Below, in pieces: positions 15,673 through 64,000 of a stretch of DNA of 64,000 nt. Under the pieces are notes generated by a model. That model saw only the letters and a program-made list of their open reading frames with translations. It was not told the DNA's origin and ran no database searches. Positions within the stretch are counted from its first letter, which is position 1. Each line of letters opens with the position of its first letter. Position numbers and translations under genes: made by a program. The DNA is taken from assembly GCA_016783355.1 (NCBI GenBank), contig JADHWR010000001.1, positions 6,072 to 70,071 of the forward strand, in the 5' to 3' direction. The DNA is from Candidatus Omnitrophota bacterium. Lineage in GTDB: Bacteria > Omnitrophota > Gorgyraeia > Gygaellales > JAHJCI01.

Positions 15673-16326
15673 TTATTCTAAGGCCTTTAAAAGCTCCTCA
15701 CCGAACTCTTTAGCTGCAAATGGACCAGCGGCAGTAATAATATTGCCATCTCTTACTACAGCTCCCCCTGTATAGTTAGCTCCTGCTTGTTGTAACTTCC
15801 CTGCTTCACTTGACCAAACAGTGGCAGATTTACCTTTAAGTAAGCCTGCCTTCGCCAGGATTACAGGAGCAATACAAATTGCGCCAACGATTTTATTTGC
15901 GGCAGAGGCATCCAATGCAATCTTATGGGCTTTGGCATTATCCCAATAAACGCTTGCACCACTGCCACCTATAAAAACCACAGCATCAAAATCAAAAGGA
16001 CTTAGCTCTTCAATCGTTAAATCAGGCTTTATTTTTGCTCCTAACATGCCCTGGGCATAATCTTGCGTAAAAGCAGCAACCTTAACTTCACAGCCTGCAT
16101 CCTCTAAAACCTGTTTGGGAATAAGTAGCTCTTCATCTCTGAAATTTTTCTGCGCAATAATCATCACTACTTTTTTCATCTCTTGGCCTCCTGCCTGCCC
16201 CGTTAGAAACTTTGTTTTTAACGGGGCCTGCGCCCAAACAACCTTTAAGAAAAAGGCACAAAAAAATCCAACCATTAAGCAAAAAACTGTTGTCCATTTC
16301 TGAAGTAGAACAAGATTCTTATTCAA
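15673..16326 (-). CDS. DJ-1/PfpI family protein (N-terminal hydrophobic extension; alternative start at MKKVVMII)
   Basis: Has the DJ-1 core VMIIAQKNFRDEEL and the nucleophile-elbow-like AICIAP. The N-terminal 50 aa contain the 29-bp TIR element. Confidence 0.8.
   Translation of the reverse strand: MNKNLVLLQKWTTVFCLMVGFFCAFFLKVVWAQAPLKTKFLTGQAGGQEMKKVVMIIAQKNFRDEELLIPKQVLEDAGCEVKVAAFTQDYAQGMLGAKIKPDLTIEELSPFDFDAVVFIGGSGASVYWDNAKAHKIALDASAANKIVGAICIAPVILAKAGLLKGKSATVWSSEAGKLQQAGANYTGGAVVRDGNIITAAGPFAAKEFGEELLKALE
16198..16226. mobile_element. 29-bp minimal TIR element (CCCCGTTAGAAAC-ttt-GTTTTTAACGGGG) flanked by cctg/cctg
   Basis: The sequence reads cctg|ccccgttagaaactttgtttttaacgggg|cctg. 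It translates as PLKTKFLTG inside the DJ-1 ORF. Confidence 0.7.
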
Positions 16327-26267: not shown

Positions 26268-26913
26268 TTAAAACATCCCAAATCATCTTAACCTGTTTTT
26301 TTGTCTCAGATTTCGTCCCACTATTATCAATAACAAAATCAGCTAAATTTAGCTTCTTTTTTAATGGCATCTGCAAATTTATGCGCTTTTTAATTTCCGA
26401 AAGGCAAAATCCCTTTTTTTTAAGGCGCAATTTTTGAATGTCTGACCTTGCCCTTACGGCAATTATCTTATCCACGATTCTCGCCAGTCCTGCTTCGATT
26501 AATAAGGGTGCATCAATTATAATAAACTTAAAATTTCGGGCCTGCTGAATCTGTATTTTAATTTCCTTAATTATTCCTGGATGCAGAATTTCGTTGAGCT
26601 TCTTTAGGGAATGCTTATTTCTGAAAGCACTCTTAGCTAACCTTTTTCGATTAATCTGTTGATTCCTGGAAAGTATCCTTTCCCCAAATGCCGCAAGAAC
26701 CCGCCTGTAAGCCCCGTTCGAAGTAAGGCGCCCAAGGCGACTGCCCCGCCAAATTCCGTGGCGGGGACTTCTAACGGGGTAAGCCTTTTTCTTGGGCTCG
26801 ATTAACTGATGCGCAATCCTATCTGCATCAATAATCTGAGCGCCTAATTGTTTAAAATAGTGCGCGCACGTCGTCTTCCCTGTGCCAAAACTGCCGGTAA
26901 TACCAACAATCAT
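26227..26913 (-). CDS. coaE: dephospho-CoA kinase, carrying a 24-codon element insertion
   Basis: [15 protein letters not shown] has the P-loop at the likely start (26913, an ATGA overlap with the glgA stop). The [11 protein letters not shown] and LHP-type motifs are present. Confidence 0.88.
26712..26779. mobile_element. 68-bp TIR element in frame inside coaE, flanked by taag/taag
   Basis: The sequence reads taag|ccccgttcgaagt aaggcgcccaaggcgactg ccccgccaaattccgtggcgggg acttctaacgggg|taag. It encodes [23 protein letters not shown]. Confidence 0.85.
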
Positions 26914-28295
26914 TTTAAAAGGTGGTGGTAAAGCCCAATATAATTCCGGGCGGCAGTGGTCCAAGAAAAATTACAACCCATACCTCGCTTCATTAAAGAA
27001 AGCCGCCTGTTTTTATCTTTAAAAACTAAAAGCATCTCTTTGATCTTTGCCACGAGGGCCGATGGCGAATACTGATCAAAAATAAAACCATTCTTTTTAT
27101 CAATTGTATCAGTAAGGCCGCCTGTCTTAAAAACCAATGGAATTGTACCATATTTCAGGCTAATCATCTGCCCCAAGCCGCAGGGTTCGTATTTGGAAGG
27201 CATCAGGAATATGTCGCAGCCAGCATATATCTTATGAGCTAATACGTTGTCGAACTTAAGAAAGGTGCGTAACTTTTTAGGAAACTTTCTGGCTAATCTT
27301 TCTAAAATTCGGTGATAATTCAGCTCTCCTGTTCCCAGAATAACCAATTGAAGCGGAAGTGAACATATCTCCTCCATTGCCTCACTTAAGATATCAAAGC
27401 CCTTCTGCTGAGTGAGTCGAGAGACAATACCCAAAAGAGGAATATCGGACCTTGAAGGCAGCTTTGATAATTTGCATAGGGCCTCCTTATTTTTAACTTT
27501 GCCTTCAATATTGTCTTTGTCATAATTCTTGAGAATAAATTTATCGGTCTTTGGATTCCAAAGCTGATAATCTAAACCATTCAATATACCAAATAGATTA
27601 TCTCGCCGCCTGATCAAGACCCCTTCCAAGCCACAACCAAACTCCTTCGTTTGTATTTCTTTGGCATAAGTAGGACTTACTGTATTTATAGCGTCAGAAA
27701 AAACAATCCCGGCCTTTAATAGATTGACCTTACCGTAAAACTCCAATGCCTCCATATTAAAAAGCGACCAATCTAAGCCTAATTTAGGAAATTCCTCTTT
27801 ATTAAATAGTCCCTGATAGGCAAGATTATGAATTGTCAATAGTGTCTTTATTCCTTTATAAAATTCATCACCTTGAGCGGTTGTTTTTAAATATACGGGA
27901 ACAAGCGAACTCTGCCAGTCATGACAATGAAGTATCTGAGGCCTGAATTCTATTTCTTTTAAAAGTTTTAATGCCTCTCGGCAAAAATAAGAGAATCGGT
28001 TGAGATTATCGGGAAAGTCACCTTCTTTTTCTCCGTAGAGTCCTGGGCGATTAAAAAACTCTTCTTTCTTAATAAAATAAACCTTAATCTTTTTTCCTAT
28101 GGTTGTTGTAGAAATTTTCGAATTTAAGTCCTCAATTTTAAATCCTGCTGCCTTTGTCTTTTTGTAAAAGGGCATAATCACGATAATCTCATGTTTTAAT
28201 CTCTCCAAAGGCAAAGGCAGAGCCCCGACTACATCAGCAAGACCGCCGGTCTTGGCAAAAGGCACAACCTCTGATGCAAACATTGCGATTCTCAC
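26910..28295 (-). CDS. glgA: glycogen/starch synthase (ADP-glucose type)
   Basis: 461 aa. MRIAMFASEVVPFAKTGGLADVVGALP is the canonical GlgA N-terminus (KTGGL). Confidence 0.93.
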   Translation of the reverse strand: MRIAMFASEVVPFAKTGGLADVVGALPLPLERLKHEIIVIMPFYKKTKAAGFKIEDLNSKISTTTIGKKIKVYFIKKEEFFNRPGLYGEKEGDFPDNLNRFSYFCREALKLLKEIEFRPQILHCHDWQSSLVPVYLKTTAQGDEFYKGIKTLLTIHNLAYQGLFNKEEFPKLGLDWSLFNMEALEFYGKVNLLKAGIVFSDAINTVSPTYAKEIQTKEFGCGLEGVLIRRRDNLFGILNGLDYQLWNPKTDKFILKNYDKDNIEGKVKNKEALCKLSKLPSRSDIPLLGIVSRLTQQKGFDILSEAMEEICSLPLQLVILGTGELNYHRILERLARKFPKKLRTFLKFDNVLAHKIYAGCDIFLMPSKYEPCGLGQMISLKYGTIPLVFKTGGLTDTIDKKNGFIFDQYSPSALVAKIKEMLLVFKDKNRRLSLMKRGMGCNFSWTTAARNYIGLYHHLLK

Positions 28296-30964
28296 TTAAT
28301 CTCCTCCATCTCTAACCAATTCTTACCCTTCTTTATTACTACCTTTATGGGAACAGAAAGGGCTAAGGCATTCTCCATCTCATAAGATATCATCTCAATT
28401 GCCCTCTGCAATTGCCCGTTCGGTATCTCAAAAATAAGTTCATCGTGAATTTGCAGGAGGAGCTTCGCCGAAAGCGTTCTTTCCTCAATCTTCTGATATA
28501 TCTTAATCATCGCCATCTTAATTAAATCTGCTGCCGAGCCTTGGATGGATGAATTTACTGCCTGCCTTTCGGCAAATGCACGAACTGCGGCATTCTGATG
28601 ATTAATGTCAGGGAGATAGCGATGGCGACCTAAAATAGTTGTTACAAAATTGTCTTTTTTTGCCTTTTCAATCTGCCTGGCGATATAATCTTTTACTCTG
28701 GGATACCTTAAAAAATAGGCATCAATAAAGCGAGTTGCCTCCTCCCTTGAAATTCCTAATTCCCTTGCTAAACCAAAGGAAGATAGACCATAAATAATTC
28801 CAAAATTTATGCGCTTTGCTACTTCTCGCATCTGATCATTGACAATAGAATCCTCTGTGCCATAAACTAAAGAGGCAGTGGCACGATGTATGTCTTTGCC
28901 TTGCGAAAAAGCATCAATCAGCACCTTCTCGCCTGATAAATGTGCCAGAACCCTTAATTCTACCTGAGAATAATCAAAAGAGACCAAAAAATTATCCTCG
29001 CAACTCGTGATGAAAGCCTTTCGTATCTTGCGCCCTAACTCTGTCTTAATCGGTAGATTTTGCAAATTAGGATTAGAGGAGCTCAGTCTTCCCGTCTGTG
29101 TTCCTGTTTGATTGAAGAATGTATGAATGCGCAGGGTTTTTTTATCTGCCAGTTCCATTAAGGCATCGATATAAGTAGATTTTATTTTACAAAGCATACG
29201 ATATTCCAATAAAATTTTTGGTAAGGGATGCTGGCTTGCTAAGACAGCAAGAACCTCCTCATCGGTAGAGGCGCCTGTCTTTTTCTTTTTTATCACCGGC
29301 AGTTTTAATTTCTCAAAAAGAACCTGACGTAGCTGTAAGGGTGAGTTGATATTAAACGGCCCACCAGCAAGATGATAAATTTTACTGACCAGGCCTTTGC
29401 GCTTTTCTTCAATTTCAATGCCCAAGGCTTTAAGAAACTCTAAATCAAGCTTTATACCCTCTAATTCCATCTGCGCTAAAACAGGAATCAAGCGAATCTC
29501 TAAGTCGCAAAAGATGCGAAAGCTATCTTTAAGCTTTAGTTCTTTCTCTAAAACCGACTTAAGTGTTCCAATAACAACACAAACCTCAAGTGGACTTATC
29601 TTTCCTGCCCCGTTCGAAGTCCCCGCCGTAGGCGGGGCAGTCGCCCCGGGCGTCTTACTTCGAACGGGGCCTGCATCCAAAATTCTCTTCAGATAATCCC
29701 AGCACAGGCTCTCAAGACTATAATCAGACCGGGACGGATTCAAAAGATAAGCAGCAATCATCGTATCAAAACCTAACCCTTCTAGGGCGATATTATGCCG
29801 GGCTAATCGCAAAAAGATATCTTTTAGATTGTGGCCGATTTTCTTAATCTTTGGGTCTCTAAGGACAGGTTCAATGCTCTTTAAGGAGCCTTTCTCTAAT
29901 TCTAAAAAAGAATCACTCTCTGGAAGATAAACTGTCAACCCCTCCTCATTCATATAGAGAATCAACTCACCTGCCTGCCTAAACTGATCAATCCCGGCAA
30001 CCTGCCTGTTGGCACTTCGACGGAGTTTATCCCGAGCGAAGTCGAGGGACTCAGTGCTAGCACTCCGACTTCGCTCAGTGCCAACCCTGAGCTTGTCGAA
30101 GGGTTGCTCAGGTAAATCTTTAAGAAATTTTTTAAATTCTAACTCACGAAAGATTTCATAAAGATTTCTATAGTCAGGCTTCTTTATCTTTAAACTTTGC
30201 GCATCAAATTCTATATCTAAATCTGTCCTTAATTGTGCAAGATAATGACATAGTTTTATTTGCTCAATCTTTTCTTTCAAGCGAGAACGAAGCTTTTGTT
30301 CTTTTATCTGATCCAAATTCAATAAGAGATTTTCCAGAGACTTAAATTTATCCAGGAGCTTGGTGGCGGTCTTTTCTCCTATGCCAGGAACACCCGGGAT
30401 ATTATCAGCTGTATCTCCGGCAAGAGCAATAAAGTCAGCAATTCTGCCGGGTAAAAATCCGTATTGGCGCTTAACCCCTGCCACATCATAAATTATCTTT
30501 TTGTCTTTATGAGGATGCAGAACAATAACTCCCTCATCCACTAATTGCAAGATATCCTTATCAGCGCTGACAATCATTATTGTAAAATCCTTCTCTTTTG
30601 CCTTCCTGGTTAATGTCGCAATAACATCGTCTGCTTCAAAGCCCTCCTTCTCAAATATATTAATTCCAAAGGCCTTGATTATCTTTTTAATGTAAGGCAG
30701 TTGAGTCACTAAATCCGCAGGCATAGGAGGACGTTGTATCTTGTAACGCGCAAATTCTTTTTGGCGAAATGTGTGCCTTGAGACATCAAAACATACACCC
30801 ATATACTGCGGATTTATCTCTTTTAAAACCTTATTCAGAAAATTCACAAAGCCATAAATAGCATTGGTACAAAGACCGTAAGAGGTCGCAAGCCCCCTTA
30901 TGGCATAATAGGCGCGGTAACAGATGCCGTTGGCATCAATAAGTACTACTTGGGCTTTATCCAT
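28292..30964 (-). CDS. polA: DNA polymerase I, carrying two different in-frame repeat insertions
   Basis: 890 aa. Has a 5' nuclease domain (GIPGVPGIGEKTA), pol motif A (SFDYSQVELRVLAH), motif B (RR.AK..NFGIIYG) and motif C (QIHDELIFE). Confidence 0.95.
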   Translation of the reverse strand: MDKAQVVLIDANGICYRAYYAIRGLATSYGLCTNAIYGFVNFLNKVLKEINPQYMGVCFDVSRHTFRQKEFARYKIQRPPMPADLVTQLPYIKKIIKAFGINIFEKEGFEADDVIATLTRKAKEKDFTIMIVSADKDILQLVDEGVIVLHPHKDKKIIYDVAGVKRQYGFLPGRIADFIALAGDTADNIPGVPGIGEKTATKLLDKFKSLENLLLNLDQIKEQKLRSRLKEKIEQIKLCHYLAQLRTDLDIEFDAQSLKIKKPDYRNLYEIFRELEFKKFLKDLPEQPFDKLRVGTERSRSASTESLDFARDKLRRSANRQVAGIDQFRQAGELILYMNEEGLTVYLPESDSFLELEKGSLKSIEPVLRDPKIKKIGHNLKDIFLRLARHNIALEGLGFDTMIAAYLLNPSRSDYSLESLCWDYLKRILDAGPVRSKTPGATAPPTAGTSNGAGKISPLEVCVVIGTLKSVLEKELKLKDSFRIFCDLEIRLIPVLAQMELEGIKLDLEFLKALGIEIEEKRKGLVSKIYHLAGGPFNINSPLQLRQVLFEKLKLPVIKKKKTGASTDEEVLAVLASQHPLPKILLEYRMLCKIKSTYIDALMELADKKTLRIHTFFNQTGTQTGRLSSSNPNLQNLPIKTELGRKIRKAFITSCEDNFLVSFDYSQVELRVLAHLSGEKVLIDAFSQGKDIHRATASLVYGTEDSIVNDQMREVAKRINFGIIYGLSSFGLARELGISREEATRFIDAYFLRYPRVKDYIARQIEKAKKDNFVTTILGRHRYLPDINHQNAAVRAFAERQAVNSSIQGSAADLIKMAMIKIYQKIEERTLSAKLLLQIHDELIFEIPNGQLQRAIEMISYEMENALALSVPIKVVIKKGKNWLEMEEIK
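29608..29669. mobile_element. 62-bp TIR element in frame inside polA, flanked by cctg/cctg
   Basis: The sequence reads cctg|ccccgttcgaagt ccccgccgtaggcgggg cagtcgccccgggcgtctt acttcgaacgggg|cctg. It encodes PVRSKTPGATAPPTAGTSNGA. Confidence 0.85.
30011..30108. repeat. Palindromic 'FDKLRV'-type repeat inserted in frame in polA
   Basis: It contains gagcgaagtcg...agtgctagcact...cgacttcgctc and accctgagcttgtcgaaggg. The same words occur in the tandem arrays at 31007-31200. It encodes PFDKLRVGTERSRSASTESLDFARDKLRRS. Confidence 0.75.
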
Positions 30965-31006: not shown

Positions 31007-31071
31007 CCTCGACTTCGTCCCTCGACTTCGTCCCTCGACTTCGTCCCTCGACTTCGTCCCTCGACTTCGCT
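31007..31071. repeat. 13-bp tandem repeat x5 (cctcgacttcgtc)
   Basis: Four perfect copies plus one variant, read directly from the sequence. Confidence 0.9.
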
Positions 31072-31200
31072 CGGGACGACCCTGAGCTTGTCGAAGGGTC
31101 GCTCGGGACGACCCTGAGCTTGTCGAAGGGTCGCTCGGGACGACCCTGAGCTTGTTGTCGAAGGGTCGCTCAGTGTCAATCCTGAGCTTGTCGAACGGAT
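31072..31200. repeat. 32-bp tandem repeat x3 plus a partial copy (cgggacgaccctgagcttgtcgaagggtcgct); each unit has a GACCCT...AGGGTC hairpin
   Basis: Units lie at 31072, 31104 and 31136 (the third has a 3-bp tgt insertion). A partial copy follows as cctgagcttgtcgaacgg. Confidence 0.9.
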
Positions 31201-31207
31201 TGAATTA

Positions 31208-32152
31208 TTAGTTTTTAGGGGTTAATTCCGTGGCTATCTTTTCTAAAGTCTGCTTTGCAGTTACAATATCATCCTGCTCATAGAATCTGATCGCATCTTG
31301 AAACTTGGCCTGCATAATAGCGATGTGTTCTTGTTTTTGTTTTTCTTTAATCTCTTTATTTATTTTATCTATTAAGGTCAAAAATGAGTCTCTGTCTGAC
31401 GGGTCCAAAGAAATGGCTAACACCAGTGCATTTTTTGCTTCCTCTATTTTGTGCTCTTCATATAAATCATCAGCCAGTTCCTTAAGTTTTTGAATCTCTT
31501 TTAACTCTGTTAATCTGACTGCCTTTTTATGAATGGCGAGCTCACGCACTAAACTAAGCGTCTCTTCCTCTATCAACTCCTGCTGAAGAGAAGGCTGAGT
31601 CTCTGCGATGGCCTGGCGTCTGCGTTTCGCCCACTCCACCCAAGACTCACCGGGAATTCCCAATTCTATACGTTTTTTCCAATAATCAAAAGCCTTCTTT
31701 AGTTCTCTTTTTTGCTCATAAAGCATAGCTAAATTTGAATATAAATTATGATACTGGGGATTTAATTTTAGTCCAACTAAATAAATCTTCTCTGCCCTAT
31801 CAAGTAAACCCTTGGCCTCAAACATAATTCCTAAATCATTGTAAGCAATAACATAAGCAGGGTCTAACTCAATTGCCTTCTGATAACAGACTGTGGCACT
31901 ATCTAAATCACCGCGCTGCTGAAACTGCAAACCTTGACTTCGAAGAAGACGTGCCTCTTTTTGAAAAGTAGTTTGTTTCTGCGCAAAAAGTGAGGTTGGG
32001 AAACAGAATAAGTTAATTGTTATAAATAAATTAATTGCTACAAAAGAGATAATTCCCTTTGTAAACCCCGTTCGAAATTCCTCCAATCTTTGCTTAAGGC
32101 TTAATGATACATAAGTAGCCGAGGCTTTTGAATCTATCTTAAATCTATGCAT
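31208..32152 (-). CDS. TPR-repeat protein with signal-peptide-like N-terminus; current start codon lies inside a TIR element
   Basis: TPR-like repeats (A...Y.KAIELDP..., NLG..FE..G....A...Y...L.L.P). The hydrophobic segment IISFVAINLFITINLFCFPTSLFA follows. Confidence 0.75.
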   Translation of the reverse strand: MHRFKIDSKASATYVSLSLKQRLEEFRTGFTKGIISFVAINLFITINLFCFPTSLFAQKQTTFQKEARLLRSQGLQFQQRGDLDSATVCYQKAIELDPAYVIAYNDLGIMFEAKGLLDRAEKIYLVGLKLNPQYHNLYSNLAMLYEQKRELKKAFDYWKKRIELGIPGESWVEWAKRRRQAIAETQPSLQQELIEEETLSLVRELAIHKKAVRLTELKEIQKLKELADDLYEEHKIEEAKNALVLAISLDPSDRDSFLTLIDKINKEIKEKQKQEHIAIMQAKFQDAIRFYEQDDIVTAKQTLEKIATELTPKN

Positions 32153-32171
32153 ATCTAAATTTCGAACGGGG
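32066..32171. mobile_element. 106-bp TIR element (no ORF of its own) inserted in the 5' end of the TPR gene, flanked by taaa/taaa
   Basis: The sequence reads taaa|ccccgttcgaaat...80 bp...atttcgaacgggg|taaa. It supplies the ATG (32152) and the first 29 codons of the present TPR ORF. Confidence 0.85.
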
Positions 32172-32433
32172 TAAACCCCGTTCGAAATAGGAAACGCTTT
32201 AATCTATCGTTCAAATAGCGTTTACCCTTTCCAGACTTCAGGTGTTTTTCTCTACTCATTGCATCATATTTATTTAGACAGGCTTCATAATAAATAAGCT
32301 TAAAGGGGCCTCTATTCTTAGTAGAAGACACCTTTCCTGAATTATGCTCACTAAAGCGTTTCCGTAAATCATTCGTTAAGCCTGTATACCATTTTTTATC
32401 TTTCTGGCTTTGAATTACATAAACATAATGCAT
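32155..32433 (-). CDS. small GIY-YIG nuclease family protein (YhbQ/UPF0213-like)
   Basis: 92 aa. MHYVYVIQS....WYTGLTNDL.KR..EHN.GK matches the GIY...YIG-type motifs (YVY / WYTG), a conserved Arg and E..HN. The C-terminal FRTGFTPFEI is encoded by the TIR junction. Confidence 0.85.
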   Translation of the reverse strand: MHYVYVIQSQKDKKWYTGLTNDLRKRFSEHNSGKVSSTKNRGPFKLIYYEACLNKYDAMSREKHLKSGKGKRYLNDRLKRFLFRTGFTPFEI

Positions 32434-32454
32434 TGCTTGTTATTTCGAACGGGG
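32176..32454. mobile_element. 279-bp TIR element whose cargo is the complete GIY-YIG gene, flanked by taaa/taaa
   Basis: The sequence reads taaa|ccccgttcgaaat...253 bp...atttcgaacgggg|taaa. The 13-bp TIR is perfect. The GIY-YIG ATG sits 8 nt inside the right TIR. Confidence 0.85.
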
Positions 32455-32511
32455 TAAATTGAGGCATCTTGATTTTAAGATACATTAAAAAAGCAAAAAG
32501 TCAAGAAAATA

Positions 32512-33384
32512 TTAAACGAGCTCTGCCCGGCGTATTAACTCTGGCACCAAATTGCTCAAGCCCAAAGGCATAATGTGGACTCCCGCGCACATTGGCTTCA
32601 ATTCTTTAATCAATCCAACAGCAATCTTCATTGACATCTGCCGCCGATCCGAGGCCTTCTCCATTTCCTTTATTAGATTATCAGGAACCTTTATACCGGA
32701 AATATTCTTATTCATATAACGTGCCATTTGAGCAGATTTTAATGGAATTATACCGGTTAATATAGTTGTTTTTAAATGTTTTATCTTTGATAAAAAGACA
32801 ACGAATTTTTCTATATCGAAAATTGCCTGGGTCTGGAAAAACTGGGCACCGTGCTCAATCTTTTTCTCCATCTTCATAATTTCAGGTTCAAAAGGCTCGG
32901 CGCCCGGATTTACTACGGCGCCAGCACAGAACTGGGGACTCCTTCCTTCCAGGGGGGCGCCACTCATATCAAAGCCCTCCTCTAATTTCTTTATTACACT
33001 TAAAAGCTCTATTGAATTTAAGTCAAATACTGCTTTTGCTTGCGGATGATCTCCTTTATCCGGAGAATCTCCTGTTAAAATCAAGATATTCTTAATACCA
33101 AAGGCTGCGGCGGCTAAAATATCTGATTGGAGGGCAAGCCGATTCCGGTCACGACAGGTAACTTGAAAAATAGGCTCAAAACCATTTTGTTTTAAGATGA
33201 TTGAACCGGCAAGAGAACTCAAGCGCATTACGGCACTCTGTAGGTCTGTAACATTTATGGCATCGATGCTTGCACCTAAAATCTTTGCCTCCTCTAAAAT
33301 TAGAGCCGAATCTGCGCCTTTTGGTGGCCCAATTTCTGAAGTGATTAAAAATTTTCCTGAGTGAATTTTTTCTTGAAAAGTCAT
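32512..33384 (-). CDS. metF: methylenetetrahydrofolate reductase
   Basis: 290 aa. Has SSEIGPPKG, INVTD and the MetF-type motifs TCRDRNR.ALQSD.L and ILILTGD. Confidence 0.88.
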   Translation of the reverse strand: MTFQEKIHSGKFLITSEIGPPKGADSALILEEAKILGASIDAINVTDLQSAVMRLSSLAGSIILKQNGFEPIFQVTCRDRNRLALQSDILAAAAFGIKNILILTGDSPDKGDHPQAKAVFDLNSIELLSVIKKLEEGFDMSGAPLEGRSPQFCAGAVVNPGAEPFEPEIMKMEKKIEHGAQFFQTQAIFDIEKFVVFLSKIKHLKTTILTGIIPLKSAQMARYMNKNISGIKVPDNLIKEMEKASDRRQMSMKIAVGLIKELKPMCAGVHIMPLGLSNLVPELIRRAELV

Positions 33385-34226
33385 TTTTTCCTTTGTATCT
33401 TTGCTGCCTCAACAAGATTGCGCAAAAGCATCATTACAGTAAGGGGGCCTACGCCTCCAGGAACTGGTGTAATCCAGGAGGCCCTCTTTGCTGCTTCTTC
33501 AAACTCAACATCTCCCACAATTTTACCATTAGCCCTGTTTATCCCGACGTCAATCACAACGGCACCTTCTTTAATCCATTTACCCTTAATTAATCCTGCT
33601 CTACCCACAGCAGAAATAAGAACCTGCGCTCTCTCTACATGCTTGGCTAAATTACCCTTTTCGCTGGTTGCAATATGGCAGACCGCAACTGTAGCAAACT
33701 TCTCAAGAAGCATCAATGCCAGGGGCTTACCGACAATCCTGCTGTGTCCAACAATAACCACCTCTTTACCATATAAGTCAATACCAGTTACCTCCAGTAA
33801 CTGCATTACTGCTGCTGTAGTAGTAGGTAAAATCAAGGCATCCCCAACAATAAGACTCCCCAAATTACTCAGAGACACCCCTTCTATATCCTTTTGGGGC
33901 GAAAGTATACTGCTTATCTTTTTATGATCAATATGGACAGGTAAAGGGAACATTACAACTATCCCGTTTACGTGTTTATCCTGATTTAATCTCTGAATCA
34001 GACCGCTGAGGTCTTTTTCTGTTATAACTTGAGACAATTTATGCAATTGACACTCAATTCCTAAAGCAGAGGATTCTTTTTTCTGTGCTTTAATGTAGGA
34101 ATCACAACCGGGATTATCTCCTACCTGAATAGTTGCCAAAACCGGCCTGATCTTAAAATCAGAGATTTCTTTTGCTAAAGAATTCTTAATCCTGCGCGCA
34201 ATTGGTCCTGCCTCTAATAATCTCAT
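33381..34226 (-). CDS. folD: bifunctional methylene-THF dehydrogenase / methenyl-THF cyclohydrolase
   Basis: 281 aa. Has LATIQVGDNPGCDSYIKAQKK, VVIVGHSRIVGKPLA.ML and TPVPGGVGPLTV.MLL.N. Confidence 0.94.
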   Translation of the reverse strand: MRLLEAGPIARRIKNSLAKEISDFKIRPVLATIQVGDNPGCDSYIKAQKKESSALGIECQLHKLSQVITEKDLSGLIQRLNQDKHVNGIVVMFPLPVHIDHKKISSILSPQKDIEGVSLSNLGSLIVGDALILPTTTAAVMQLLEVTGIDLYGKEVVIVGHSRIVGKPLALMLLEKFATVAVCHIATSEKGNLAKHVERAQVLISAVGRAGLIKGKWIKEGAVVIDVGINRANGKIVGDVEFEEAAKRASWITPVPGGVGPLTVMMLLRNLVEAAKIQRKK

Positions 34227-34334
34227 TGTTTCATTTCAGAAGTCCTGACTTGCGAACTATTCAAGCGGGTCCTGGCAGCCCACCGCCTCGCCACCCGCTT
34301 GGTATGCAACCTTACGAAACCTTCTCTGTGTCCA

Positions 34335-34868
34335 TTATTTGGTAGACAATACATCGTTACATTTTTCCTCAATAAAAGCTCTTCTGTTTCTAACATAGCG
34401 ATAACTTAGCTGAAGTTCTTTAATAATCTTTGCGCTTCTTTTTTTCTCTAAATTCCTTAGATTTATCTTAACATTAAAATAAGCACTCCCAAATCCTGCC
34501 TCAAGCAAAACCGCGGCTACAGCGACATCACTAATTAAGTTTTTATTTGCCTTCGGGAAAAGCAGGGCACATAGTTTTATTCCTTGCTTAGAAAGCCGGG
34601 CTACCTTCAAGGGTACATTTAATACTAAGTTTTTCTTTCCGCTTTTAAAAGCAAAAATGTCCAGATCCACCAGTTTTAAAAATTCCTTTCTTAGGCTTTC
34701 GGATTTGCGAAGTCCCCCCCTCATCTCTCCTTTACTAAAATTAATGACCATGCTGATTAAAGCCATACCCATCGCCGAGGTTAATGCCGCAGCTGCTCCA
34801 CCGCCTGGAGTGGACTTCCTTGCCGATAAATCATCCAGATAACTTTTGAGTGATTTATTATAATACAT
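34335..34868 (-). CDS. fchA: cyclodeaminase/cyclohydrolase family protein (FtcD C-domain / FchA-like)
   Basis: 177 aa. YLDDLSARKSTPGGGAAAALTSAMGMAL is the hallmark of this family. It sits between fhs and folD. Confidence 0.8.
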   Translation of the reverse strand: MYYNKSLKSYLDDLSARKSTPGGGAAAALTSAMGMALISMVINFSKGEMRGGLRKSESLRKEFLKLVDLDIFAFKSGKKNLVLNVPLKVARLSKQGIKLCALLFPKANKNLISDVAVAAVLLEAGFGSAYFNVKINLRNLEKKRSAKIIKELQLSYRYVRNRRAFIEEKCNDVLSTK

Positions 34869-39282: not shown

Positions 39283-40440
<1,158 letters not shown>

Positions 40441-43287: not shown

Positions 43288-45378
43288 CTATAGTTTTCTT
43301 GCTATCTTCTCAATTTTATAGCCTTCCATTATATCGCCTATTTTATAATCAGAAAAATTACCTATGGATATGCCGCACTCATAACCTTCAGATACCTGAG
43401 AAACCTCATCTTTAAAACGCCGAAGATTGCTAATCTTTCCGCTAAAGATAGTAGTGTTGTCTCTGATTATATCTATATTGAGCGTGCGCAAGATCTTACC
43501 CTTAGTTATAGTACACCCCGCCACAACACCACTTCGCGAGAGATTAAAAACCTGCTTCACGCGTGCCTGTCCAAAAGATACCTTTTTTATCTTTGGGCTT
43601 AACAACCCTTCTAAAGCCGCCTTTATCTCCTCGACTAATTCATAAATTATATTGTATGTCCTTACCTCCACCTGCTCTTTTTTAATTAATTCCTTTGCTC
43701 GCTCTTCTATATTTATATGAAAACCCAAGATTAGCGCATCAGAGACAGACGCCAGCATTACATCTGAAGTGTTAATTAAGCCCACTCCTTTATGGGTTAT
43801 CTTAAATTTTACCTCTTTTGTCTCTAATTTTATTAGAGAATCCCGCACCGCCTCTAATGAGCCGAATGTGTCTGCTTTAATAATAATCTTCAGCTCTTTA
43901 AGAACACCGTTTTTTATTTCCTGATGTAAATCCTCCAGCGAAAACCGATGTGGTGAAATATTCCTTTTTTCCTTTGTCTCGCGCAGCGAGATAAGTGCTC
44001 TTGCCCCTTTCTCGTCCTTGACAACAAAAAATCTCTCTCCTGCCTCAGGCACGGATTCAAAACCTAAAATTCCCACAGGCTGACTGGCAGTAGCTTCCTC
44101 AACTCTCTGGCCACAGTCATTAAATATTGCCTTTACCTTTGCTAAGTTCTTCCCCGCAACAAGTAGATCATTAAGATGTAATTTTCCATTCTGCACCAAT
44201 AAAGTTGCCAGAGGACCCCTGTTTGGGTCCTGTCTTGCCTCAATAACAACACCCCTTGCTATCTGATTATAATCTGCTTTCAATTCTAACATTTCTGCCT
44301 CTAAAAGAATCATCTCTAATAATTCATCTATGCCCTGACCGGTTTTGGCAGAAACCTCTACCGTTACGGTCTTGCCTTGCCACTCCTCAGGAACTAAACC
44401 AATATCAGCAAGTTGCTTCTTTACCCTATCTACGTTAGCCTGAACTCGATCAACTTTATTTATGGCGACAATTATAGGAACCTCAGCATCTCGGGCATGG
44501 TTAATTGCCTCAATTGTCTGAGGCATAACACCATCATCAGCAGCAACCACTAAAACAACAATATCTGTAATCTGTGCGCCCCGTGCACGCATTGCCGTAA
44601 ATGCCTCATGACCGGGTGTATCCAAAAATGCAATCTTACCCTTATCTAAATTAACCTCATATGCACCGATGTGCTGGGTTATGCCTCCATGTTCAAAATC
44701 AACGACCTTTGTCTTTCTAATCATATCCAAAAGGGAGGTCTTACCATGGTCAACATGACCCATAAATGTTACTACGGGTGGACGAACATTTAAATCCTGA
44801 GGCTGGCTTGATACCTCATGTAAGGAAAGCAGGCGTTCTTCTAAAGAGGGAGCCTGCTTGACTTTAAAGCCAAAATTCTCACAAACCTGCTCTACTTCAT
44901 CTTTTCCTAAAGATTGGTTAATGTTGGCTAGGATTTTTAACTTTAAAAGTTCCTGCATTAGCTGCGAGAGTTTAATTTGAAGCTTAACCGCTAAATTCTT
45001 AACAGAAATAGGGAAATCTAATTCTAATACCTTAGCTTGTGGCGCCTCTTCAACCAAAATTGCTTGTAGCTGCTGGGGTTGAGGCTCTAAGGTCTTTGCT
45101 TGAATTTTAGACTTGCGGGAGACTCTTCTCTTTGGTTTAGGGGCTATTTCTTTCCTCTTGATTTGCTTTTTGCCTGGCTCTTTTCGTAGGACCGCAGGCT
45201 TTTTTGCTTTCCTTGCCCCGTTTGAAATCCCTCGCCTAACGGCGGGGGCAGCTACCTTTGGTGTCTTACTTCGAACGGGGTTTGGCTTTGTAGAGGAAGC
45301 CCTTAAGCGAGTCTTTGAAGCCTTTCTCACTTTAGTTTTTAATGCTTTTGGTTTCTTAGGTTTTTTTATCTTTTTCAT
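43288..45378 (-). CDS. infB: translation initiation factor IF-2, carrying a 23-codon element insertion in the basic N-terminal region
   Basis: 696 aa. Has the G domain [21 protein letters not shown] and NKVD. Confidence 0.94.
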   Translation of the reverse strand: MKKIKKPKKPKALKTKVRKASKTRLRASSTKPNPVRSKTPKVAAPAVRRGISNGARKAKKPAVLRKEPGKKQIKRKEIAPKPKRRVSRKSKIQAKTLEPQPQQLQAILVEEAPQAKVLELDFPISVKNLAVKLQIKLSQLMQELLKLKILANINQSLGKDEVEQVCENFGFKVKQAPSLEERLLSLHEVSSQPQDLNVRPPVVTFMGHVDHGKTSLLDMIRKTKVVDFEHGGITQHIGAYEVNLDKGKIAFLDTPGHEAFTAMRARGAQITDIVVLVVAADDGVMPQTIEAINHARDAEVPIIVAINKVDRVQANVDRVKKQLADIGLVPEEWQGKTVTVEVSAKTGQGIDELLEMILLEAEMLELKADYNQIARGVVIEARQDPNRGPLATLLVQNGKLHLNDLLVAGKNLAKVKAIFNDCGQRVEEATASQPVGILGFESVPEAGERFFVVKDEKGARALISLRETKEKRNISPHRFSLEDLHQEIKNGVLKELKIIIKADTFGSLEAVRDSLIKLETKEVKFKITHKGVGLINTSDVMLASVSDALILGFHINIEERAKELIKKEQVEVRTYNIIYELVEEIKAALEGLLSPKIKKVSFGQARVKQVFNLSRSGVVAGCTITKGKILRTLNIDIIRDNTTIFSGKISNLRRFKDEVSQVSEGYECGISIGNFSDYKIGDIMEGYKIEKIARKL
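45216..45280. mobile_element. 65-bp TIR element in frame inside infB (flanks cttg / tttg)
   Basis: The sequence reads cttg|ccccgtttgaaat ccctcgcctaacggcggggg cagctacctttggtgtctt acttcgaacgggg|tttg. It encodes PVRSKTPKVAAPAVRRGISNGA. Confidence 0.8.
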
Positions 45379-63116: not shown

Positions 63117-63189
63117 AGCGGGAGACGGGCTTCGAACCCGCGACATTCACGTTGGCAACGTGATGCTCTACCAACTGAGCTACTCCCGC
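63117..63189 (-). tRNA. tRNA-Gly(GCC)
   Basis: The minus-strand sequence GCGGGAGTAGCTCAGTTGGTAGAGCATCACGTTGCCAACGTGAATGTCGCGGGTTCGAAGCCCGTCTCCCGCT folds as a cloverleaf. The anticodon loop is TTGCCAA. Confidence 0.9.
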
Positions 63190-63216: not shown

Positions 63217-63302
63217 TGCCGCGGGAGAGACTCGAACTCTCAAGTCTTTGTCAGACATTAGGTCCTAAGCCTAACGCGTATACCAAATTCCGCCACCGCG
63301 GC
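63217..63302 (-). tRNA. tRNA-Leu(TAG), long variable arm
   Basis: The minus-strand sequence is GCCGCGGTGGCGGAATTTGGTATACGCGTTAGGCTTAGGACCTAATGTCTGACAAAGACTTGAGAGTTCGAGTCTCTCCCGCGGCA. The anticodon loop is CTTAGGA. Confidence 0.88.
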
Positions 63303-63371: not shown

Positions 63372-63697
63372 CATTTTTGTTAACTGTATGTCGCCATACA
63401 GATCAGACTATCCCATCCCCCTCACGCTTATCCTTAAAAAAGAAAGCGATGGGGGTCTCGATTATAGTCGTTGAACCTTCCCAGTACTTATTTGCTAAGA
63501 TAATTTCTGATTCAAATAAATGCCGGGCTTGGCTGCAGATTGTCTGCATTTAAGAATTTTTACCCCCGCCACAATACTTTGGCGGGTCGCCAATGCTTTG
63601 TGGCGACAGACATAAAGGGTATCTTAAAATACTCAGACTTTCCCGCAATTTACGAGATTCTCACTATTGATTTCTCAATAATGGCCCCTTTTTCGCG
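63372..63697 (-). ncRNA. Group I-like intron (no ORF), with a repeat module inserted at the P5 tip
   Basis: It starts after an exon U and ends in G. Hand-folded pairings are listed here:
- P1: GCCCU/GGGGC.
- P2: CAUUAUUGA-GAAA-UCAAUAGUG.
- P3: UCUCG/CGAGA, followed by J3/4 UAAAUU.
- P4: GCGGG/UCUGC, followed by J4/5 AAA.
- P5: GUCUG/CAGAC.
- The conserved AGCCAAGCC word.
- P6: CCCGG.../...CUGGG.
- P7: GACUAU/AUAGUC.
- P8: CCCCC.../...GGGGG.
- P9: UGUAUG-GCGA-CAUACA. Confidence 0.72.
63563..63607. repeat. Single inverted copy of the 46.6-kb double-hairpin repeat unit, embedded in the intron
   Basis: The plus strand reads ccccgccacaatactttggcgggtcgccaatgctttgtggcgac. This is the reverse complement of the gtcgccacaaagcgttggcgacccgccaaagtattatggcggg unit at 46696-46738. 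Confidence 0.85.
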
Positions 63698-64000
63698 AGG
63701 GCGGTGCTCTACCAGATGAGCTAGTGGCCCATTTCTATCTTAAATTTGTAATTATTGCCAAAGAACAAAATCTATATCTATTTCTGATAAGATTTTAATA
63801 ATAAATCTAAGATTTTTCTCTTTGAAATTTTTCTTTTCCAAATTCCATTCTTTCTGCTCGCATTTATATAAATTCTAGGCGAAAAATTTATCTCTTTAGC
63901 AAATCTTAATAAGTTTTCCCTTTTGGAGATTTCTATCTCAGTGCCCCTTTTATTAATTCTGCTCTTTATACCAAAACCATTTAATAAATCTTTTATCTGT

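Follow-up and report, generated by a model that had tools for sequence, protein, structure and literature searches.

A candidate mobile element of about 275 bp whose only gene encodes a small GIY-YIG nuclease, in Omnitrophota and other phyla

Every prokaryotic transposon known to us is moved by an enzyme of the DDE/DEDD, HUH, serine, tyrosine or Cas1 type, and the smallest autonomous one is about 700 bp long. MITEs (miniature transposable elements with inverted repeats) and other small palindromic elements (Correia elements of Neisseria, Rickettsia palindromic elements, RUP) are short, multi-copy sequences with terminal inverted repeats (TIRs) and short target site duplications (TSDs); the known MITEs derive from insertion sequence (IS) elements with DDE-type transposases, which also mobilise them. 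Minimal stand-alone GIY-YIG nuclease domains are found in the UPF0213 proteins (YhbQ, BH0048, EF2693) and in eukaryotic Slx1. The prokaryotic Slx1-like proteins have been held to be vertically inherited repair enzymes, the selfish GIY-YIG nucleases being assigned to a UvrC-like lineage (PMC1564403). A GIY-YIG protein also figures among the genes transferred out of Patescibacteria (PMC12455944), and GIY-YIG proteins have been reported in non-intron insertions of rRNA genes of the candidate phyla radiation (CPR), 'outside the context of homing' (PMC11270868). We describe here a family of elements of about 275 bp in which a gene for a protein of this type is enclosed by TIRs and 4-bp direct repeats, together with shorter gene-less members. 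One such element and a gene-less one lie in tandem in a gene for a TPR protein, within a 64,000-nt stretch of the Candidatus Omnitrophota bacterium assembly GCA_016783355.1 (contig JADHWR010000001.1, positions 6,072–70,071 of the forward strand; this whole stretch is called the window below). The gene-less members resemble MITEs and the small palindromic elements in size, copy number, TIRs and TSDs, but the sole coding relative with matching ends is the 275-bp GIY-YIG unit.

On the plus strand, positions 32062–32458 of the window read taaa, a 106-bp element, taaa, a 279-bp element and taaa. Each element carries CCCCGTTCGAAAT at its left end and ATTTCGAACGGGG at its right end (plus strand), termini that are complementary at 13 out of 13 positions, and the interiors between the TIRs amount to 80 and 253 nt, respectively. 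The direct repeat copies are at 32062–32065 (TTTA on the gene strand), 32172–32175 (the sole spacer between the two elements) and 32455–32458. The gene-less 106-bp element (32066–32171, minus strand) has identical TIRs at 32066–32078 and 32159–32171. The 279-bp element (32176–32454, minus strand), which is of autonomous type, consists in gene orientation of a left 13-bp TIR (32442–32454; CCCCGTTCGAAAT on the minus strand), 8 nt, and a GIY-YIG open reading frame (ORF) that runs to the last base, through a right 13-bp TIR (32176–32188) encoding ..F R T G; in the inverted-repeat listing its arms are complementary at 15 out of 15 positions. All this agrees with an earlier reading of the window made from the letters alone (the sequence-only reading), which had proposed two elements with perfect 13-bp TIRs and a shared 4-bp repeat. 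That reading also held that the 279-bp element contains a complete GIY-YIG ORF. The GIY-YIG assignment stands, but the ORF is not complete within the element, which lacks a stop codon: the 92-aa frame (32155–32433, minus strand) crosses the right TIR and the 4-bp repeat, has its last six codons and stop outside the 279-bp element, and ends 17–19 nt into the 106-bp element (...RFLFRTGFTPFEI*).

The host gene is interrupted near its 5' end. The TPR ORF (31208–32152, minus strand) now starts inside the 106-bp element, and the TAG of the GIY-YIG ORF (32157–32155) lies 2 nt ahead of the TPR ATG at 32152, as had been noticed before; the TPR gene is thus probably translated at present from an ATG within the 106-bp copy, 2 nt past the GIY-YIG stop. 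Excision of 393 bp (both elements and two of the three 4-mers) yields ATG CCT CAA TTT|ACA AAG GGA with the TPR frame kept, so that the earlier claim of a restored in-frame ATG is borne out. The predicted empty junction is ATGCCTCAATTTACAAAGGG, and the reconstructed N-terminus reads MPQFTKGIISFVAINLF... The inferred original start codon at 32465–32467 (minus strand) is indicated by the ATG CCT CAA TTT|A.. junction, by the N-termini of TPR orthologs and by a promoter-like TTGACT-16-TATCTT just upstream (32504–32477), which is not significant on its own. In the orthologs, as in the reconstructed protein, a hydrophobic segment comes after a short n-region, and none has the MHRFKIDS.. extension, which speaks against that extension as the ancestral N-terminus. 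As these orthologs are only ~44% identical, they do not permit an empty-site comparison at the DNA level. In the search for unoccupied TPR loci that the sequence-only reading had proposed, no empty DNA allele was found, and the short N-termini of the orthologs match the reconstruction. The TPR locus is occupied in the same way in independent Logan, NCBI and ENA assemblies. In one of these (L003; ENA ERZ24794679, a 659-bp contig) two tandem GIY elements are followed by the 106-bp element, with TTTA between each, and the main scaffold of that sample has a 100-N gap at the GIY site; the double GIY unit reflects either true polymorphism in copy number or an artefact that the 30-bp palindromic junction caused in the assembly graph.

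The 106-bp copy had been regarded as a deletion derivative of its neighbour. At the same end of both elements the TIR is followed, after 8 nt in the 279-bp element and 6 nt in the 106-bp one, by ATGCAT, so the shared feature on which that proposal rested is real. In a global alignment of the two, however, 8 of 300 shuffles scored as well (z about 2), only marginally above chance. Apart from the TIR-proximal ATGCAT that is common to both, the 106-bp element shows one 16/19 match to the LIYYEA region of the GIY element. Derivation by deletion is possible, as judged from this limited likeness.

The identity of the protein as a UPF0213-like GIY-YIG domain, suggested earlier, was corroborated at several levels. 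The ORF matches PF01541 with E = 3.3e-19 (69 bits; cutoff 22.6). Among proteins of solved structure, the nearest to it are the UPF0213 members 1zg2 (E = 9.5e-11) and 1ywl (E = 1.4e-4), followed by Slx1, and Foldseek ranked structures in the same order: 1zg2, Slx1 (7cq2, 4xm5) and I-TevI (1ln0). The AlphaFold2 model (pLDDT 89) has the E-E-H-E-H-H topology of the GIY-YIG fold. Residues Y3, Y5, Y16, G18, R26 and E62 are invariant among 29 sequences; the catalytic Tyr, Arg and Glu are among them. The usual family member has 86 aa and is a single domain with no extra DNA-binding domain. Against the group I intron endonuclease model TIGR01453 (NCBIfam) the ORF scored 20 bits, below the cutoff of 56; PADLOC defence models gave no family for the nuclease at E ≤ 0.1, and Rfam searches, at gathering thresholds and permissively, matched no family or intron model to the element. 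No transposase of a known class (DDE, DEDD, HUH, Ser, Tyr, Cas1) is encoded, the GIY-YIG domain of 86–92 aa being the sole ORF. In the window and about 330 kb of loci, the only larger cargo (0.4–4 kb) bounded by such TIRs is the nested case described below, and no other enzyme or transposase lies between TIRs of this kind.

Relatives of the nuclease are numerous. A scan of one genome per GTDB species returned >579, from Patescibacteria, Omnitrophota, Planctomycetota, Desulfobacterota, Nitrospirota, Bdellovibrionales, Clostridia and one Woesearchaeota metagenome-assembled genome (MAG), and with a profile search 3,420 cluster representatives were obtained at E ≤ 1e-10, some of which are long fusions, in frame, with proteins of the host. 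Homologs are 65–79% identical and typically 86 aa long. They end in ..RFLSLTG, and some begin with an extension MNPVR(D/E)..; both are translations of the TIR. Identity among relatives does not track taxonomy, and the host context differs in every genome. The gene thus does not behave as a vertically inherited repair gene, given its 65–77% identity across unrelated phyla and one archaeal MAG, its changing surroundings and its TIR/TSD flanks. Two copies within one genome are 85% identical at the DNA level. Since more distant relatives (about 45% identity) do not have the ..LTG end, the TIR-bearing group is a distinct clade. In IMG/VR no relative of the nuclease was found, and matches among INPHARED phages were all at ≤41% identity.

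For statistics on the ends, 83 gene copies in homologous loci were used, from Patescibacteria, Omnitrophota, Planctomycetota, Desulfobacterota and a Woesearchaeota MAG. TIRs were accepted under a strict definition (arms complementary at ≥11 of 14 positions, of the form CCCG.../...CGGG, one shortly upstream of the ATG and the other spanning the final codons), which was satisfied by 69–70 of the 83; inspection showed variant, truncated or interrupted TIRs in most of the others. The expectation that GIY-YIG relatives elsewhere would be flanked by TIRs was therefore confirmed. The family consensus is [C/T]CCCGTT.GA.., and complementarity extends over exactly 13 bp and then stops sharply. Compensatory changes are seen at several arm positions: the terminal base pair, complementary in 63 of the 69 strict copies, varies between C:G (35) and T:A (24), and at another covarying position, the wobble base of a Leu codon, the pairs are T:A 35, C:G 24 and A:T 8. 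Between left arm and ATG lie 0 to 19 nt of unrelated sequence. At the other end the ORF runs to ..LTG at the element's last base, and in 52 of 83 copies the stop codon follows in the flank right after it. The element itself has neither a stop codon nor a promoter, nor any clear ribosome-binding site, and so lives off host signals. As for the concern that the TIR might be a generic repeat, placed at random relative to these genes, it is indeed repeated throughout this genome (see below), but its position is not random, as the motif overlaps the codons for ..FLSLTG and covaries with the other arm. This point, like the other two that the sequence-only reading had named as able to refute it, thus came out in its favour.

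Within the window the exact TIR 13-mer occurs four times and, with up to two mismatches, 13 times, compared with 1.25 ± 1.16 in shuffled sequences (none of 100 reached 13). The window holds seven elements in all, one GIY copy and six gene-less ones. Besides the 106-bp copy these are a 29-bp minimal member at the 5' end of a DJ-1/PfpI gene (16198–16226, flanks cctg/cctg), a 68-bp member in frame in coaE (26712–26779, taag/taag), a 62-bp member in frame in polA (29608–29669, cctg/cctg), a 29-bp palindrome made of TIR, 3 nt and TIR in frame in tgt (39867–39895, cttg/tttg) and a 65-bp member in frame in the N-terminal region of infB, for IF-2 (45216–45280, cttg/tttg). These five all lie within long ORFs and translate as ..PVRS...SNGA.., and for each of them the length plus 4 is a multiple of 3, which implies that the short copies are read through in translation. 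Set against solved structures of the host protein, two of them prove to be insertions: CoaE has exactly 24 extra residues at the element, that is (68 + 4)/3, and in TGT a 9-residue gap in the structures lies opposite NPVRNDISN, so that both provide empty sites at the protein level. In PolA the element region aligns with Klenow without a clear gap. A genome-specific TTCGAA variant of the TIR is common to the GIY copy and the MITEs of the window; the exact TIR pair with a gap of 240–270 nt gave no match in the JGI metagenomes, and the variant seems to be lineage-specific. A further 25 gene-less forms were found in other genomes, the whole set spanning 27–126 bp. They have the attributes of MITEs, being small, non-coding, TIR-bounded, TSD-flanked and multi-copy, with ends in common with a coding element, and their interiors are diverse between identical arms and unrelated to the GIY gene. 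Translational bypass of the insert in the TPR mRNA, or its removal by RNA splicing, was also considered and rejected: it is 393 nt long, no intron model matches it, and the multiple-of-3 lengths of the short copies imply read-through.

A 4-bp target duplication had been proposed from the TPR locus, and it holds for the family. Exact 4-bp direct repeats flank 25–26 of the 69 copies with strict TIRs, whereas 5.0 were expected from cross-paired flanks, and about 19 of 30 short elements (window and other genomes) have them as well; the protein-level empty sites of CoaE and TGT and a nested insertion point the same way. In the exact cases the repeat begins with T every time (26 of 26) and ends with A or G; an A precedes it in 20 of them, ATGAA being the commonest context. 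The nested insertion was found in L015, from another Omnitrophica MAG. Here (145–907) an older T-type GIY element sits on a host ATG, with TGAA duplicated, and its ORF is split at ...RERYL|KTGMGKRYLKNR... by a TTTA-flanked insert consisting of a GIY element, TTTA and a 124-bp gene-less element. When the insert and two of three TTTA are removed, the invariant RE(K/R)YLK(S/T)GMGKRYLKNR motif is restored. Both the architecture and the 4-mer are those of the window locus. Arrays in tandem, with one 4-mer as the shared spacer, are a common finding (in the window, L003, L015, L024, L035, L046, L056 and L062). The right TIR region of the inner GIY element of L015 itself contains an inserted mini-palindrome.

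In addition to the TIRs, a second pairing, which the sequence-only reading does not mention, was detected inside the coding sequence. In the window copy its 5' arm GGAAACGCTTTA (32352–32363, minus strand; codons 24–28, RKRF) pairs at 12 out of 12 positions with a 3' arm TAAAGCGTTTCC (32190–32201, minus strand; codons 78–82) that lies 1 nt from the right TIR. Family-wide, nt 70–83 of the coding sequence (codons 24–28, RKRF) pair with nt 230–243 (codons 77–82, LKRFL), and three of the pairs join two wobble positions and vary in concert: A:T 42 and G:C 27 for the first, C:G 52 and T:A 17 for the second, T:A 37, C:G 28 and G:C 6 for the third. For TIR and inner helix together, in 66 aligned elements, 96.4% of cells were paired versus 87.4 ± 0.3% in shuffles, and double-change cells numbered 194 versus 60 ± 7 (0 of 500 shuffles as high); slid controls gave 26–54% pairing. 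RNAalifold independently returned just these two helices and nothing else of note. As no more than 1 nt separates the inner helix's 3' arm from the right TIR, stacking of the two helices is possible; the stacked fold leaves a 5' bulge of ~85 nt containing the start codon. G:U pairs outnumber A:C pairs by 19 to 7 in the inner helix, which suggests that it is the sense strand that forms the fold.

Gene-less elements have their own version of this arrangement. In 13 of 29 an unrelated hairpin of at least 6 bp stands 0–1 nt from a TIR, nine of these being individually significant (p ≤ 0.05), and members of ~60–126 bp often have a GC-rich hairpin beside one TIR, just where the coding element has its inner helix. 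Unrelated hairpins at a constant place point to a cis-acting requirement for structure rather than for sequence. Short elements bearing such hairpins were seen in L006, L012, L013, L024, L056 and L069 and, in the window, at 26712–26779 and 29608–29669.

Out of 79 elements, 45 end between −6 and +30 nt from the ATG of a co-oriented host ORF (≥80 aa), compared with 16% of random positions, and in 21 of those 45 the junction is an ATGA overlap with the host start; one lineage (24 contigs) has ATGA overlaps with neighbouring genes at both junctions. Five copies occupy, in frame, the G|F(T/S)LxE site of prepilin-like genes, where ..LTG|F(T/S)L.E regenerates the cleavage site, and a 600-aa fusion has the same prepilin arrangement. 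Prepilin peptidase could then set free the nuclease as well as a mature pilin of normal form. The prepilin-site insertions, in genes resembling those of type IV pilins, are at 1984–2258 and 2742–3016 of L081 and in L029, L006, L004 and protein P0178; the left TIR plus 4-mer encodes G-F-T-P-L-E, itself mimicking the prepilin motif. Flanks show a likeness to the element's own TIRs (3.9 versus 3.2 matches out of 13, p about 0.004) that is weak, significant and at most suggestive. In two related Clostridia MAGs (L043 and L053) an element stands upstream of one and the same host gene (start MFDLI..), but with different flanks, a 10-bp direct repeat GGGGTTATGA in one and TAA/TAAAG in the other, which suggests independent insertions at one site or rapid evolution of the flanks.

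Architecture, multi-copy status, target duplications, insertions relative to homologs, covariation in the helices, an intact catalytic site and spread across phyla are all matters of observation, and with its fixed ends, conserved fold and single conserved gene this family of miniature elements is mobile. How it moves has to be reconstructed. From the conserved linkage, the intact active site and the conserved fold we infer that the nuclease is the mobilising enzyme, and we give a probability of roughly 0.6 to the explanation that a ~275-bp autonomous element is mobilised by its own structure-specific GIY-YIG nuclease and has given rise to MITE-like derivatives. In the process envisaged, the two ends would pair as a 13-bp helix with the covarying internal helix stacked on it. 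The nuclease would recognise this fold in a single strand or a cruciform and cut at its base, the cleavage geometry and the single-stranded intermediate being our conjecture; it would also make cuts staggered by 4 nt in TNNA targets resembling the element end, and the move would be completed through repair and ligation by the host. A T-N-N-A/G target is duplicated (4 bp) on insertion. At the TPR locus, the GIY copy and the 106-bp copy entered, successively or together, at one TTTA in codon 4, which accounts for the three TTTA copies. The gene-less forms behave as MITEs and persist in frame within housekeeping genes. A bolder version, to which we lean somewhat less than to its denial, is that the ~86-aa Slx1-like nuclease is by itself a structure-specific transposase, and the ~275-bp unit the smallest autonomous DNA transposon and a new mechanistic class, which would act through a folded intermediate, exploit host start codons and translational coupling, and have spread across bacterial phyla and archaea.

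Several points weigh against mobilisation by the nuclease. We know of no way in which an 86-aa nuclease could carry out strand transfer, and to our knowledge the characterised GIY-YIG enzymes (I-TevI, Eco29kI) leave 2-nt 3' overhangs, not 4-nt staggers. No excision product was found, nor an empty TPR allele, an exact 23-mer scan of the JGI metagenomes giving 0 matches; the other assemblies of the TPR locus are occupied, and in two samples the scaffolds are interrupted by runs of N where the GIY element lies. One identical protein (P0118) is encoded in 24 contigs, all at a single locus, so that very recent transposition is not indicated. Of the GIY copies, about 60% are without identical 4-bp flanks, their flanks being drawn from the same TNNA set, and the combinations TTCA...TAAA and TTTA...TGAA recur, some with chimeric terminal bases. 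We attribute the non-identical flanks to age, synonymous drift (TTC/TTT in G-F-T), recombination between copies and stop-codon selection, which do not explain them fully. Flanks of this class occur in unrelated genomes (L042, L047, L052, L063, L065, L071, L073 and others), where TTCA...TAAA and TTTA...TGAA extend the inverted repeat by 3–4 bp. The excess of G:U pairs in the inner helix would also suit a purely RNA-level role. Finally, a transposase acting in trans may be encoded beyond the 64 kb of this genome that were examined.

On another view, an unlinked transposase of conventional type, for example DDE, moves the elements in trans, which would then be ordinary MITEs, and the GIY-YIG gene is a long-standing passenger that aids persistence, perhaps by cleaving donor or empty sites and so causing the element to be copied back, like TnpB/IscB in IS200/IS605. 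TIRs with 4-bp TSDs are classic DDE signatures, an 86-aa protein has no obvious capacity for strand transfer, gene-less copies outnumber GIY copies six to one in the window, and the MITE interiors are unrelated to the GIY gene. Yet a larger TIR-bounded element or transposase is absent from the window and about 330 kb of loci, the transposase would have had to travel along across >10 phyla, and the GIY-TIR unit is conserved across phyla with the end of the ORF built into the TIR and the inner helix into the coding sequence; we regard this view as unlikely. That the gene is instead a free-standing homing endonuclease that invaded pre-existing 26–29-bp palindromes, the arms being half-sites and not transposon ends, would account for the minimal 29-bp palindromes with the same arms and a 3-nt centre, and a palindromic target would yield arm covariation; palindromes are also reported as targets of GIY-YIG restriction enzymes (PMC2241918). 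The right arm, however, belongs to conserved coding sequence, the left arm is separated from the ATG by 0–19 nt of unrelated sequence, the cargo is diverse and a DNA-binding domain is absent from the protein. The palindromes, too, lie inside genes and are flanked by 4-bp TSDs, so that a mobility mechanism would still be needed, and we consider homing distinctly improbable.

A role of the helices in RNA would have a duplex of ~25 bp processed, for example by RNase III as in rRNA intervening sequences, or regulating translation of the nuclease, with DNA mobility relying on the same ends without the fold; it is compatible with mobilisation by the nuclease. The preponderance of G:U on the sense strand agrees with it, and the GIY-YIG-encoding non-intron inserts of CPR rRNA genes must leave the RNA (PMC11270868). 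Processing would nevertheless destroy the in-frame MITEs of essential genes, many of which keep a TIR-adjacent hairpin, and no Rfam family matches, which makes this very improbable as the explanation. That nothing moves at all, the gene being a conserved host gene with regulatory hairpins or the repeats an assembly artefact, could draw on the N gaps in the scaffolds of two samples and on the duplicated GIY unit of the 659-bp contig, maybe a graph artefact. It is effectively refuted by the same arrangement in independent NCBI, Logan and ENA assemblies, by host contexts that vary by genome, by insertions relative to solved homologs, by the excess of TSDs and by the nested insertion.

If the 275-bp GIY-YIG element does move by itself, it would bring a new enzyme class into transposition and set a lower size limit for autonomous mobile DNA. 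Annotations as 'GIY-YIG nuclease family protein' in CPR, Omnitrophota and other uncultured lineages, so far taken for repair genes, would have to be reread, and the small GIY-YIG-encoding insertions of CPR rRNA genes would be explained. Those insertions are probably the same elements, the TIR/TSD architecture not being noted in the paper that reported them (PMC11270868). The elements also exemplify near-harmless parasitism in ultra-compact genomes, through insertion at ATGA junctions with translational coupling preserved, in-frame insertion at the prepilin G|F site and gene-less copies translated within essential enzymes. A very small nuclease that seemingly reads a defined DNA fold is, besides, a potential tool.

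The window has other features besides these elements. Upstream of the TPR gene (32512–34868, minus strand, and in L001) lies a folate/C1 cluster with FTHFS, FTCD_C, FolD and MTHFR; a terminator-like hairpin stands at the MTHFR stop and the promoter-like site ahead of the TPR gene. A second, unrelated repeat family occupies 31007–31198, between polA and the TPR gene, with tandem units of 13 nt (CCTCGACTTCGTC) and 32 nt (TCGCTCGGGACGACCCTGAGCTTGTCGAAGGG) that translate into FDKLRVVPSEVEGRSRG-like peptides, and a related stretch (FDKLRVGTERSRS...DFARDKLR) is in frame within polA (28292–30964). A group I intron (Rfam RF00028, 88 bits) was located at 63384–63707 (minus strand), adjoining tRNAs at 63117–63189 and 63217–63302 (minus strand); a weak GIY-like tblastn match at 63867–63932 (E = 2.5) is probably noise.

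In the full-text literature outside subscription journals, searched with the TIR sequences included, no description was found of a prokaryotic TIR/TSD element with a small GIY-YIG gene; the sequence-only reading, which knew of none, is upheld to that extent, and the family is apparently undescribed. Its likenesses to known systems are each partial. Its gene-less copies, like Rickettsia palindromic elements, are in frame and translated within protein genes. The resemblance to REP/RAYT (REPtron) systems, in which short palindromes (repetitive extragenic palindromes, REPs) are scattered genome-wide and one small gene (the REP-associated tyrosine transposase, RAYT) lies between inverted repeats, had been pointed out earlier; it holds for the superficial layout but fails for the enzyme, the TSDs and the intragenic position. 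RAYT is a Y1 HUH (IS200-like) transposase, usually a single-copy domesticated one, and REPs are extragenic without TSD, whereas the present elements have a GIY-YIG enzyme, true termini, 4-bp TSDs, positions inside genes and horizontal spread. With IS200/IS605, the smallest known autonomous IS (about 0.7 kb), moved by single-strand 'peel and paste', they share minimal size, dependence on ends with DNA secondary structure, a short target of tetranucleotide type and, possibly, a fold specific to one strand; IS200/IS605 has an HUH transposase, subterminal hairpins and no TSD, in contrast to the GIY-YIG protein, terminal repeats, 4-bp TSDs and less than half the size seen here. GIY-YIG homing endonucleases (I-TevI, I-BmoI, Seg proteins) have the same catalytic fold and a selfish lifestyle, but add a C-terminal DNA-binding domain, recognise long sites and enter cognate alleles by homologous repair without TIR or TSD; here there is no extra domain and no intron, the target is a 4-bp TNNA, and the family is absent from IMG/VR. 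In Penelope-like retroelements, too, a GIY-YIG nuclease opens the target and short TSDs result, but these are eukaryotic, kilobases long, dependent on reverse transcriptase and devoid of 13-bp TIRs. The closest relatives of the protein itself remain the minimal stand-alone domains of UPF0213 and Slx1, and the cutting of branched and stem-loop DNA by Slx1 fits a fold-recognising role for the nuclease of these elements.

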